Assembly (NCBI GenBank): GCA_026023565.1
Contig: JAPETS010000075.1
Span: forward strand, 1-61,981
Origin: Cirrosporium novae-zelandiae
Lineage: Eukaryota
Direction: 5' to 3'
DNA: 61,981 bases
Shown here: positions 56,997 to 61,700 of the stretch, piece by piece
Layout: every line of letters starts with the position of its first letter
How positions within the stretch are numbered: the stretch's first letter is position 1
Notes under the pieces: model-generated
What the model was told of the DNA's origin: nothing
Database searches by the model: none
Seen by the model: the letters and a program-made list of their open reading frames with translations, nothing else
Position numbers and translations under genes: made by a program

Positions 56997-58399
56997 TTAC
57001 GAGCCGGTTGGACCGCTTTTAGCCTCCGCTGCCTCTTTCTTCTGTATCCACGCCTTTATAGCTGCGTCTGTGACCAACGAACCTCCTCCGAAGGAATTGA
57101 ACTATAGCAGCTCAACTGAATTAGTTTATAAGCAAAGCAGACAAGTGTGTAAAGAGTATTTTGGCGCATACCGTGTTTAAGATGTTCAGTTTATTCGCGT
57201 CCTTGACAGTGCCTACTACATGCCCCGTGATAATTCCCCAACTCAAAACATTATCTCCCTGCTTAACATCGCCGAGACTGATGACCGTCTTACCTATTTT
57301 CTGGGAAATGTGTATTAACATGTCGTCTTGCACCATATAGACTAGTAACAAGAACTTCTTACTTTTGGATCCTCTGTAGTCTTATCAATGTTTGAAATCA
57401 TGAGCTTCAGTATATCGGTCACATCAATGAATCCGGTAGTCTGATCATCCGCGAATTTGCATATAGTGAGGTGGTTCGCATTAATGGCAACAGGCTTGCA
57501 TCCGGCAAGTGTTGCAGACTCCGCAGTTACGATTTTCCCTAAATCTATTTTCATCCCCCACTGCGTTTTCTTGGTTGACTTTGATTCGAAGAAGCATGCT
57601 ACTTGAATAGGATTCAACTCCTTAGAGGCATACCGCTGCTGCAATAGCATGTGGAATTCCAAGCTAATTTGTTGCAGTTTCTTAGAATCTTTGTCAAGAT
57701 CTTTGGTCGTCTGATTATTGTTATCGCCAAACAGGCGTAGGAATTTCTCTGCCATACTAGCCCATGCAGCTTTATTGGAGCCTTTAAACGGGGTTCCGAG
57801 AAAGATAGTACCACAAGTGTTGTTGACAACCTCTGGACCTTGCGCATCTGACCCATAATAGCTTGAGAGACCGTTGGCGCAAATTAGGCCTCCGAGGGAA
57901 TGAGCCACAAAAATAATCGGACGAGTCTCCTACCAGTGATTAAATTATTAGTAAGTATAATTTATAAGGTAGTCGGGCTCGGGAGCTGTACTGTATGAGT
58001 CTCTCGTCTGCGGTTTCCAAGTTTCAGAATCAAGGAGGTCGAATTCTTATCGATAGTTGTATGTGCAATCAATTCAGGAGTCACGATTGGGTAGAATGTT
58101 GCGAAGTCTGTGGGATATCCAAACGAAAAAATTCTGGACTCTGGCACGATGTTAGGAAGAAGGTCTTTTGGCCAGTAAATCCGTTCTCCATCGCCAGGAT
58201 CTACCCCCTCCCATGTTGTCTTTGGATGACCCCTAAGTCCATGAACGAAGACAATGCTAGGGATCGATTAAGATACGCAAATCTGAGCTGATTTGAGATG
58301 AACCTACTCCACTTTAGCCTCATCACCTGCATCCCAAAGTTTATTTAGGCCGTCTGGCACAATCTCGGGTGAAGGATCTGTAAGATTTTTAGATGCCAT
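56997..58399 (-). CDS. SesB-like (SERAC1/PGAP1-type) alpha/beta-hydrolase with C-terminal extension, 5 exons
   Basis: D/IVFVHGLRG, YWPKDLLP, RIFSFGY, RPIIFVAHSLGG, IFLGTPFKGS, CFFE, NHLTICKF. Frame is intact after splicing; ATG at 58399. The last acceptor is ambiguous (stop at 56997 or 57056). Confidence 0.85.
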
Positions 58400-58544
58400 A
58401 AAAATCTGGGGGATTTCTCATTAGGTAAAATTGGGAGGAGTAAAAGGCTGGGCGTGATAAAAATATAACTATGGTTACTGCAAAACACACTATAAAGTAA
58501 TGCAATACGTTAACAGGATATTTGATGCTATAATTTTCATTTAG

Positions 58545-60666
58545 GTTGCTATCAGAAATAGTAGACTATAGTCATGCCATTGATTTGGAGGAATTACAAC
58601 GTGAATATATTATTTCCTTATCAGCAAGGATTCTAAGTGACGAATCCAATGACGAGCTTCATGCAGCCACAAAAGGAATCGAGTCGCAATGTTTCCAATG
58701 GCATCTGATTATTCCCTAGGCTGTTCTCAGATAGTTACCGCTACAGCCCACCAAAAATATTAGTGCCTCTGGTAAGTTATAGGTTCATTGTAGTTTGCTC
58801 TAAATTTTTATCTTGAAGTTAATCTTGGCATAAATATAGAGGCGTTACTGGCGTTTGATGAAAAGATAGGTTCGTGTAACTATTCTTACTGTACAAAGAC
58901 TAACTATAAATAGCTTGCCTACGTTCCTTTAATCTTCCTAATATCGATGCTCGTCAGCAAGACATAGCGCCTTCTCATAAAGATACGTGTAACTGGCTAT
59001 TCAAAACTACCAAGTTCCAGCAGTGGCGGGATCGAAGTGACCTACCCTGCCAACCTACAATGGAGTGCTTTGGATCAAGGGCAAACTAGGAGCTGGGAGG
59101 TGGACGTTGATGAAACGTACTTTGGACCACTATCGGGAGATCTTCAAATGTTACGTTATTGCGGCATATTTCTTTATTACCCGGGGCGATAGTCTTGAGA
59201 AGACCCCTCTAGGAATGCTGCGCTGCTCGACTAGGATCCTATTATATACGAAAGTTTTATTTCAAGATTTCGCGATAAGCAGAAAAAGCATCAGACATGG
59301 GAGTGGCAGGAGAGAGAACTCGAAACATTCTACTCTCGGAAGCAAAGGCATACCAGTCTAAGCCTCTACTTCTTCTCATCGCCGCCTTGGATGAATGCTA
59401 TGAGCAGGAAGTGTAAAAGGTTGTAGGATTCCACGAATTGCTAAGCATCCCTGTTCTTGACCAAAATATCGCTATTGATATCTGTCTGTCTAGCCGTCAT
59501 TATCCATATACTAGTATGCAAAAGACTCTTGAACTGTTTGTGGAGGAGAGAGAAGAGCATAATGGAGACATTTTAAATACGTCCGGGACAAACTGATTAA
59601 AAGGGACCAGGGAAGCGAATATAGCATTCTTCAAAAGGCATCCGATATCTTTATGTGGGTTATACTTGTTGTCGCACTACTTAGCCGAGCATATGATAAC
59701 GGCAAAATTGAGGCCATGCACCAGACACTTCACGAGGCGCCACCTGGTCTCGAAGAGGTGTTTGGGGCACTTTTAGGCAAAGATAGCCTAGATAAGAATG
59801 AGACTATACTTATGCTCCAGTGGGTGTTGTTCAACAGACGATCGCTAAAGCCAGAAGAACTATATTTTGCTACGATAGCGGGAACAGATACACAGAAACT
59901 AGGAGCTTGGAAGCGATCAAAGATAACTAGTGATGATATTCGGCGACGCATTACCTGTTCCTCAAAAGGCCTTATCGAGATACGCAAGGGACAAGTAGAG
60001 ACCGTGCAATTCATCTACGAGTCTGTGAATGACTTCCTCATTCGAAATAGGAGGCTGGAGATGTTGGACCCTAAGCTCCAGTCGAATGTCATTGGCTATA
60101 GTCATGCCCATCTAAGGGCTTGCTGTATGTCGTACCTTATGATCAAAGAGCTGCCATTAGCAGAGAATAAGGGACATGCGAAGGAACTCGGCTTCAGCTA
60201 CCCGTTCTTATAGGATGCTGCAACATACGTTCTCGACCATACCGAAGAGGCGCAAGCAAGATGTATAGAACAGAAGGATTTTATTCAAGGACTACGACAG
60301 GTGCATGGAGAGTTTGAACGATTGAGACGCTTTTATAATGCCTTTGAAAAACATATTAATTTAGAGTGTGAAAAAGGCATAAAATTACTCGATATGCTGT
60401 CGCGTCACGGGTATTATAAACTTACCAAGACCATCCTGCTCGAGAATGAGGTCGATGTCAACGCCCAGGGTGGAACCTACAGCAACGCGCTACATGCAGC
60501 TTTAGTTAATGAAAATACCGAAATCGTAACGGTATTACTCGAGAACAACGCCAATATTAACGCTCAGGGCGGAATCTTCGGTAATGCGTTACAGGCGGCT
60601 TTCTGGGATAGCAGCAATGAAAACGTAGCAAGACTACTAGAGAAGGGGGCTAACATCGATAATTAA
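58545..60666 (+). pseudogene. Degenerate fungal NLR (NACHT + ankyrin repeats)
   Basis: TCNWLF..FQQW, degenerate Walker A LWIKGKLGAGRWTLMK, Walker B LLIAALDEC, ICLSSRHYP, IFMWVILVV, two NAQGG..NAL ankyrin repeats. Several frameshifts and in-frame stops (e.g. TAG at 60211). Confidence 0.88.
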
Positions 60667-60915
60667 TCTTCAAGGGCGTATCGTAGCTAACTGTCGGCGG
60701 AGTACCGTTTATAATTCGACTAAGGCCATCATTCTTATAATCACCACTTGCTTAGTCAAATACATTATCCTACATTGACTGAACTTGTGATTATATTTGC
60801 TACCACTTATTGCTCTTCACTACTCTACACTCTCCTTTGTGGATTTACGACCGCTTCTCTGCTTCTAGGATAATGATAAGCTACCGCAACCACGTGTTTG
60901 ACAATCGAACTATAT

Positions 60916-61700
60916 TCATTTTCTCAGGTCACGAATAACCTCGTCAGTCAGCTCATATTCCCCAGCCCAGCACTTCTTTATAACATCACCACCTAACACT
61001 TTACCTAGCGCAGAAACTGCCTCGTCTTGAACCACCTCACAATTTCTTGTTTGACCTTCCAAGGATCCAGCTGCAGAAAGGGCCAGATTACCTTTTATCA
61101 TGAAGTAGATAGTTAAACCCGAAGCGAATATATCAGTCTTCGGATTCGTGTTATTTGGATCCGATCGTGGGATCGATGACTTGACACCCTCAGCGGAATC
61201 GTCATTAAGGTAAATCGCACCATCAGGATACAGAGGTCTCCCTTGAAAATCGCAAAGTTTGATATTCAAATCCTTGCCGAGGAGTAGATTTCCGACACCA
61301 ATATATCATAATGAAGGACTCCTTTCGTGCAAAGATACGCAGCCGCCTCTACAACCTACAATGCCCCATTTCAATCTTTCCTACATCGGGAGTCACGGTT
61401 CTGCATTATGAAGATGATCAACTAGTGATGATCCATCGGGCATATATACTCAAGCCAGAGGACCCTCCCTATATTTCCCCTTAAACCCCACTATTTGACA
61501 ATATACTATCCCAAAAAAACACCAAAAAGGATTTATTCTTCAACGTCAAGACCGATTGATTCACTATTCTTACCTCATGATCCCGTAAATCTTTTCTTCT
61601 TTTTCAAAGTCAGGACCTAGCAGCTTCTCTGGGGGGGTATGTAGTAAACTAGTAGTTGAGAATATTTATTCGAGGAAGTTCATTCCTCGTCGACAAGACC
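60916..61700 (-). pseudogene. Protein kinase-like pseudogene
   Basis: Fragments IVGFKG, EYMPDG, NLLLGKDLNIKLCDFQG, TDIFASG, VIKKCWAGEY, interrupted by stops and frameshifts; no intact catalytic loop. Confidence 0.75.

Follow-up and report, generated by a model that had tools for sequence, protein, structure and literature searches.

The 61,981-nucleotide stretch of Cirrosporium novae-zelandiae DNA analysed here (contig JAPETS010000075.1 of assembly GCA_026023565.1, hereafter the window) carries at positions 56997 to 60666 an intact gene for a SesB-like alpha/beta-hydrolase, lying divergently to the remains of a NACHT-ankyrin NOD-like receptor (NLR). We read the locus as the remnant of an amyloid-signalling-type fungal NLR/effector pair in which the neighbouring NLR was the cognate receptor, and put the probability of this reading at roughly 55%. 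What is directly observed comprises the gene models, the decayed state of the NLR, a conserved motif in the tail of the hydrolase and the paired architecture of related loci. The SesB-like hydrolase family is linked to regulated cell death.

The hydrolase gene occupies 56997-58399 of the minus strand and encodes 385 amino acids in five exons, open throughout, its ATG beginning at 58399 (58399-58397) and its stop codon lying at 56999-56997. The four introns, of 51, 62, 62 and 70 nt, are all bounded by GT..AG. The model agrees residue for residue with the public protein P0271 (385 amino acids), which NCBI lists as hypothetical and assigns to a metagenome-assembled genome of Cirrosporium novae-zelandiae, and stand-alone homologues align with it colinearly over its full length. 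With the family invariants also kept, this bears out the original prediction, made from the letters of the window alone, of an intact stand-alone hydrolase on the minus strand. The exons are as follows.

58308 to 58399, minus strand: exon 1, N-terminus, alignable to homologues until '..AKVDIVFVHGL'
57992 to 58256, minus strand: exon 2, with the HGL..TW motif of the oxyanion region and the opening strands of the alpha/beta core, colinear with P0128, P0131, P0134, P0140 and P0144
57363 to 57929, minus strand: exon 3, the catalytic core, which holds the invariant Glu and His and whose AHSLGG nucleophile elbow lies at 57905-57888
57172 to 57300, minus strand: exon 4, C-terminal amyloid-signalling-like motif KIGKTVISLGDVKQGDNVLSWGIITGHVVGTVKDANKLNILNT, scoring 79.8 bits with the tail profile hidden Markov model
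56997 to 57101, minus strand: exon 5, short conserved end ..FNSFGGG..AAIKAWIQKK.., its junction and end matched by P0130, P0125 and P0278

Used as a query, exon 3 (195 amino acids) finds 2468 relatives at E<=1e-3. Most of the best 150 are short proteins (121 of at most 500 amino acids), whilst 25 exceed 700 amino acids, and in the three long relatives scanned, P0149, P0170 and P0180, the hydrolase domain is followed by a NACHT or NB-ARC domain (with TPR). As the same domain stands at the N-terminus of NACHT and NB-ARC NLRs, that of the window can be assigned to the SesB-like effector domains of fungal NLRs, as had been proposed. Pfam places the family among DUF676, PGAP1 and Abhydrolase_6; exon 3 alone scores 13.4 bits with DUF676, below the cut-off of 20.3, and the homologues P0128 (25.7 bits) and P0131 (26.0 bits) pass it. 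Every invariant column of the family alignments (A1 and A2) is retained in the window, namely H10, S11, G13, G14, E115 and H153 of exon 3, and the Ser of AHSLGG would form the catalytic triad with Glu115 and His153. A profile of the family matches the esterase BlEst2 (6wpx) at E 3e-5. The fold of the window hydrolase is taken from its alignment to the family, the protein modelled being the homologue P0144. Its AlphaFold2 model (mean predicted local distance difference test score, pLDDT, 79.3; predicted template modelling score 0.76) exceeds a pLDDT of 90 across most of the hydrolase core and is matched by Foldseek to thioesterases, lipases and dehalogenases with probability 1.00. Residues 293-368, the tail of P0144, have a pLDDT of 34-55, which fits a flexible appendage and proves nothing.

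The motif encoded by exon 4 forms one block of some 40 residues with the approximate consensus xIxxGDVxxxxxxxxxGxxxGHVVGTxKDA. The tail profile was constructed from nine tails, and after the window itself (79.8 bits) it scores 76.1 bits on the hydrolase of locus L001, 58.1 bits on that of L004 and 34.5 bits on that of L002, these being loci from the metagenome scan described below. It recognises the motif in 16 of 150 representatives of the hydrolase family (independent E-value <=1e-5), and the tail that the original prediction had remarked upon is accordingly a conserved C-terminal motif of the kind coupling effectors to NLRs. A wider search with alignment A3 gathers 21 proteins, all of them hydrolases and some named 'SesB protein', spanning Dothideo-, Sordario-, Leotio- and Orbiliomycetes. 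No Pfam model matches the window tail, or those relatives' tails that were scanned, at E<=10; this includes PF17046, the model of the PP motif (PMC12261475), NACHT_sigma PF17106 and the HET-s models. The sigma-type locus L064 served as positive control: its hydrolase, SesA and NLR are all three recognised by PF17106, at 53-66 bits. The PP signature NxGxQxGxN is absent from the window tail. A relationship to HET-s was looked for without success: the tail profile finds no HET-s entry in the PDB, its sole match being a polyhydroxybutyrate depolymerase at the chance level (E 0.095). Compared in this way with Pfam and the PDB, the tail falls into none of the classified families of fungal motifs (HRAM, the HET-s-related amyloid motifs; sigma; PP; PUASM), and it may be an unrecognised relative of HRAM or the first sign of a new motif family.

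On the plus strand, the NLR survives only in pieces.

58913 to 60666, plus strand: NACHT-ankyrin NLR pseudogene, with four frameshifts and three premature stops
59080 to 59103, plus strand: degenerate Walker A, GKLGAGRW against GKPGAGKS in homologues (Lys-Ser to Arg-Trp)
60430 to 60660, plus strand: remaining ankyrin repeats, about 2.3 repeats of 33 residues (Pfam Ank_2, Ank and Ank_4)
60667 to 60834, plus strand: relic of the C-terminal end of the NLR, with stops

Its identity is clear from Pfam (NPHP3_N/NACHT 35.8 bits, cut-off 24.8; Ank_2 36.9 bits, cut-off 27.3) and from its homologues, the relic being 76% identical to P0001 over 216 amino acids, 66-78% identical to P0003 and, in the stretch preceding the NACHT domain, 70% identical to P0090. 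Alignment by tblastn with P0003, and with P0090 for the 5' part, requires the succession of frames 2,1,3,2,1; because the aligned pieces abut or overlap, these changes of frame are not introns. The frameshifts lie near 59045, 59230, 59325 and 59575 and the in-frame stops at 59232-59234, 59414-59416 and 60211-60213. Besides the ruined Walker A, the Walker B sequence reads LLLIAALDEC, its first Asp having become Ala. The ankyrin array has collapsed: the close homologues P0001-P0003 have at least a dozen repeats, and the 2.3 left in the window can be aligned with the long arrays of P0001 and P0003 in nine or more registers. Residues 847-981 of P0003 align by tblastn with 60346-60810 across four stops, and the match reaches 60834. 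Repeat-induced point mutation was considered as the cause of decay and set aside, as the NLR lacks its signature (TpA/ApT 0.94; (CpA+TpG)/(ApC+GpT) 1.17).

It might be supposed that the NLR is in fact intact and that its frameshifts are assembly or sequencing errors. The name line of P0271 does label the contig as part of a metagenome-assembled genome, and the stretch is represented by one data set, probably its source. Sequencing error is unlikely, however, because four frameshifts fall within about 530 bp, yet the adjacent 1.16-kb coding sequence of the hydrolase and housekeeping open reading frames (ORFs) of up to 891 codons in the window are undisturbed. Such errors would also have to account for three substitution-type stops, the altered Walker A and Walker B residues and the collapsed ankyrin array, and we regard this explanation as very improbable. 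An intact effector beside a decayed receptor, as was originally claimed, is therefore supported by what is observed.

The case for regarding the two as partners comes from related loci. A metagenome scan yielded 80 loci, in 34 of which an NTPase lies less than 800 bp downstream on the same strand, these being fused NLRs. Fourteen loci with a stand-alone hydrolase were examined for pairing, and in ten of them the hydrolase is divergent to an upstream NLR, or NLR start, which repeats the hydrolase's own tail at its N-terminus. The linkage in relatives that the original prediction called for is thus found. The partners in these ten loci are:

L001: divergent upstream NB-ARC (43.7 bits) and TPR; motif pair, by eye, ITFGDFKGGDNNISLGGYMMGHVVGTTKDA against ITLGEWTHKGSSNFKGSFLGGHQVAHRKA
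L002: NACHT-type start, where the contig ends
L003: motif only, where the contig ends
L006 and L042: NPHP3_N and ANK (NACHT-ankyrin)
L013, L015 and L020: DUF7779 and TPR
L034: ANK
L078: NTPase

In six loci, the score between tail and N-terminus is higher within the locus than in every comparison across loci: 42 against a best cross-locus score of 36 in L002, 86 against 45 in L003, 66 against 61 in L013, 88 against 42 in L034, 62 against 42 in L042 and 71 against 50 in L078. For L006, L015 and L020, it is plainly the motif that aligns best within the locus, and loci of the same motif type score equally high. No clear pairing is seen in L008 and L014, nor in L004 and L007, which offer 518 and 948 bases upstream, respectively. 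The window-type motif itself is matched by the N-termini of the NB-ARC-TPR receptor of L001 and the NACHT receptor of L002, and a variant of it by the NACHT-ankyrin receptor of L006. By architecture and motif, the related loci follow the logic of the Podospora nwd2/het-S locus, with a hydrolase as effector and several types of motif.

In position, orientation and spacing, the dead NLR of the window agrees with the cognate receptor of these relatives. Between the start of exon 3 and the first NLR homology lie 984 bp, and the same distance is 844-1566 bp in seven related loci; NACHT-ankyrin receptors do partner such hydrolases, as L006, L042 and L064 demonstrate. It is from this position only that we infer the cognacy of hydrolase and NLR. 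Several results count against it. A search for a tail-like motif in 58400-58912 gave a Smith-Waterman score of 21, to be compared with a median of 22 for 226 control segments, 162 of which score as high or higher; in the matrix of loci, the window tail scores 39 with its own upstream region (a spurious match), the off-diagonal maximum being 44. Within the first 250 residues, none of 120 homologues of the dead NLR carries the window-type motif, the best matches being to an internal PNP_UDP stretch. Of the fetched loci, L064 alone has a close relative of the dead NLR (50% identity); L064 is of sigma type, and the window tail is not sigma. Finally, the two closest relatives of the hydrolase are paired with other types of NLR, NB-ARC-TPR in L001 and a different NACHT protein in L002. 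On these grounds (the unsuccessful search of 58400-58912, the 0/120 homologues and the sigma type of L064), the further claim of the original prediction, that hydrolase and receptor were each other's pair, is not established.

The same observations can be accommodated if the dead NACHT-ankyrin gene is a relic of some other system, for example a sigma-type ses locus, which came to lie beside the hydrolase as NLR and effector genes cluster regionally, the true receptor being elsewhere or lost. The nearest relative of the NLR among the fetched loci would then be the sigma-locus receptor of L064 for good reason, and the homologues nearest in the pre-NACHT stretch do have sigma-type or very short N-termini. 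It has been proposed that an NLR and an effector can signal to one another though their genes are not adjacent (PMC9815663). Were the relic of sigma type, traces of its companions might be looked for, but no similarity to SesA is found anywhere in the window and the sigma motif model PF17106 has no match in it; nor are traces found in the window of an NB-ARC-TPR receptor like that of L001. N-terminal modules of fungal NLRs are reshuffled among NOD types, and the clade of the NOD therefore says little about the N-terminus that has been lost. The dead NLR sits exactly where a cognate receptor sits, in the same orientation and at the same spacing, in 10 of 14 related loci, though NLRs make up only a small share of fungal genes. 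An unrelated relic is accordingly a possible but doubtful explanation, and descent from a cognate pair is the reading retained here.

The start of the NLR was sought in the region between the two genes.

58400 to 58912, between the genes: intergenic region, GC content 0.355, no recognisable NLR start codon or motif
58773 to 58912, plus strand: possible relic intron, gtaagt ... gactaac ... tag, directly before the first NLR-homologous codon; an assignment by inference, the frame upstream having stops

Coding-like sequence leading into the NLR had been placed only about 150 bp from the hydrolase, a claim that did not survive: the stop-free frame concerned, 58534-58719, has no ATG, no Pfam match and no significant similarity to NLR N-termini, and recognisable NLR homology begins at 58913, 514 bp from the hydrolase ATG. 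The whole of 58400-58912 shows no significant similarity to NLR N-termini. Three candidates within or bordering on it were rejected. The first, NLGDFSLGKIGRSKRLGVIKI, picked by eye as a motif on the NLR side, has no ATG, lies 4 bp from the hydrolase start and scores below background. The second, MASDYSLGCSQIVTATAH (58698-58751), shares 7 of 18 residues with the start of P0090 (E 3.2, not significant). The third, a possible duplicated 5' exon, is the match of 58549-58629 with the N-terminus of P0091 (E 0.25, not significant). A compressed intergenic region was also considered as evidence for a 5' deletion and discarded, as the spacing falls inside the range of the relatives. The 44-residue pre-NACHT piece, used as a query for homologues, found nothing beyond a single candidate.

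The homologues offer limited help with the missing end. Their N-termini vary: some are very short, and others consist of sigma-type or different motifs, of SesA, HET or PNP_UDP, or of fused SesB-like domains. The adjacency would have looked coincidental had intact NLR orthologues carried an effector domain of their own, such as PNP_UDP; the NLR relatives closest in the pre-NACHT stretch have no large domain there, in keeping with the original prediction. The closest homologues overall, P0001-P0008, all begin at a Met right after the Walker A ('MKHTL..'), probably because gene callers took the first ATG in the exon. Their true N-termini are therefore hidden, which limits what can be said of the ancestral N-terminus of the window NLR.

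Selection on the hydrolase, which it had been suggested should be measured, is purifying by the ratio of nonsynonymous to synonymous divergence, dN/dS: 0.12-0.17 against L001 over 189 codons, with dS saturated, so that the value shows long-term constraint only and is silent on the time since the NLR died. An effector that is intact and constrained beside a dead receptor could be taken to have become independent of NLRs, either as an ordinary esterase or lipase with a tail of different function, or as a self-propagating prion-like or allorecognition element that persists after receptor loss in the manner of [Het-s]. The Nectria sigma element involves a SesB lipase locus (PMC5485727). The constraint, being long-term and measured on saturated dS, has little to say about this. 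In [Het-s], furthermore, the part that is disabled is the killing domain of the effector, whereas the window hydrolase retains all its catalytic residues. Independence from NLRs is thus improbable, and we return to the hydrolase as the effector of a pair that has lost its receptor.

By analogy with known systems, such a pair would work as follows. The effector is a 385-residue SesB-like serine hydrolase, a catalytic domain followed by a presumably flexible tail with the motif of about 40 residues. In the relatives, a working pair would comprise this effector and a divergent NLR whose first 30-60 residues repeat the tail motif. Binding of a ligand to the repeat domain would lead the NLR to oligomerise, and its clustered N-terminal motifs would then adopt a cross-beta fold, which would template the same fold in the tail of the effector. 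The hydrolase would thereby be switched on or relocated, with regulated cell death as the result. Both the amyloid templating and the cell-death output are predicted by this comparison. In the genome from which the window derives, the NACHT-ankyrin receptor is dead, with no recognisable start or motif left, and the hydrolase would be an orphaned, intact effector, which either answers to a different NLR encoded elsewhere in that genome or is itself heading for decay.

The closest known case is the het-S/nwd2 locus of Podospora anserina, whose two ORFs are divergent and 0.6 kb apart, and in which every wild het-s strain has nwd2 as a pseudogene whilst its motif-bearing partner persists (PMC4344463). 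The window shares with it an effector with a C-terminal templating motif (predicted in the window), a divergent NLR and a separation of the ORFs of about 0.5-0.6 kb, and shares with the het-s strains the loss of the NLR beside a surviving motif-bearing partner. The differences are nonetheless numerous. In the window the effector is a serine hydrolase rather than a HeLo pore-former, the NLR is of NACHT-ankyrin rather than NACHT-WD type and retains no motif, and its decay has come about through frameshifts and stops rather than a transposon scar. The motif, unlike that of het-s, consists of one block of some 40 residues, matched neither by the Pfam HET-s models nor in the PDB profile search.

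The Nectria haematococca ses locus (sesA, sesB and het-eN, with the sigma motif) likewise has a SesB-like hydrolase adjoining an NLR, and L064 is its metagenomic counterpart. Positions 1547-6000 of L064 hold a complete sigma cluster of sesB-like hydrolase, sesA (on the opposite strand) and NACHT-ankyrin NLR, with PF17106 in all three; one motif is common to the hydrolase tail and the NLR N-terminus, and at the level of loci no receptor is more closely related to the dead NLR than that of L064 (50% identity). The window, by contrast, is without sesA, its tail is unmatched by PF17106, and its hydrolase is 34% identical to that of L064 against 68% to that of L001. A third comparison is with the PNT1/HELLP/SBP cluster of Chaetomium globosum and Podospora, which is based on the PP motif and in which a putative lipase, SBP, has a C-terminal amyloid motif and is controlled by the adjacent NLR (PMC5485727). 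The window resembles it in having a lipase-type effector with a C-terminal motif and an adjacent NLR, but its tail lacks NxGxQxGxN and is unmatched by PF17046. Judged by these motif models, the window locus fails the motif test for both of the known hydrolase-linked cases, sigma and PP.

In the table of neighbouring motif pairs of PMC9815663 (supplement file 6), over 34 of 34 occurrences of PF05057 and 53 of 55 of PF07819, the hydrolase-linked motif identifiers all belong to the PP or sigma clusters (Figure E). It is attractive, if speculative, to consider that the window tail may define an unclassified family of NLR-associated amyloid signalling motifs, specific to SesB-like hydrolases and widespread in Pezizomycotina, and that the effector has here outlived its receptor, as [Het-s] outlived nwd2, to be activated in trans by a distant NLR or co-opted as an element with prion-like behaviour; we hold this as a tentative proposal.

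Other tails occur on the related hydrolases. A second recurrent type, FNGPISGRYVIPGAHTTGGTVNFNF, is found in L013, L015, L020, L014 and P0195; in L013, L015 and L020 divergent NLRs of TPR type carry a match to it at their N-termini, and it resembles the N-terminus of the NACHT-ankyrin protein P0071. The tail of L014, the sole one of this type scanned, has no Pfam match. Further distinct pairs of tail and NLR N-terminus are seen with the stand-alone hydrolases of L034, L042 and L078 (GGPIFMGDQNAG, FFGINHGSQLGQLI and 'GGSVFQGNYVG'), and the two of these tails that were scanned, those of L034 and L078, have no Pfam match. Going by these tails, the diversity of hydrolase-linked motifs seems to extend well beyond PP and sigma.

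Two of the loci have further peculiarities. In L002 (1-2564), which is nearest to the window in its tail, the hydrolase is split across two overlapping frames and the P-loop region of the NLR reads LWVHGIRKSTCSGFG, with no Walker A; L002 may be another decaying pair, or its contig may contain an error. On the minus strand of L014 (1-3015), an open frame of 1005 residues, unmatched in Pfam at E<=1e-4, lies upstream of the stand-alone hydrolase with the 'GHNV..GG..NFNF' tail.

The window is fungal, and its spliced housekeeping genes include those for a thiamine-synthesis enzyme, a CLC channel, DHFR, Cwc15, an exosome subunit, a P4-ATPase and homoserine dehydrogenase. A protein-kinase-like relic at 60916-61305 of the minus strand, together with 61223-61348, faces the dead NLR in convergent orientation and scores 14.6 bits with Pfam Pkinase (cut-off 31.7). 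Its catalytic-loop and DFG positions look degenerate ('YIGVGNLLL' and 'DFQ'), and there is an apparent frameshift upstream. Kinase domains are one of the types of N-terminal domain in fungal NLRs, and in L054 an ORF with a kinase domain likewise lies upstream of the hydrolase.

Amyloid-templating NLR/effector pairs of fungi serve as a model for prion-like signal transduction in immunity. The locus is a real example of this known kind of system, set apart by its orphaned, intact effector and by a tail motif outside current public models. On its own, the window represents ordinary turnover of a fungal NLR locus. Under the reading favoured here, it would be the second natural example, after nwd2/het-s, of an effector keeping its predicted templating tail after the death of the adjacent receptor, and as such it bears on how NLR/effector modules decay, become rewired or are exapted. 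It points, too, to hydrolase-linked motifs beyond PP and sigma, which are the sole classes linked to DUF676/PGAP1 in the pair table of PMC9815663, within the coverage given above. If the tail does define a new motif family, then L001, L002, L003, L006 and others would provide testable cognate pairs for the specificity of cross-seeding.

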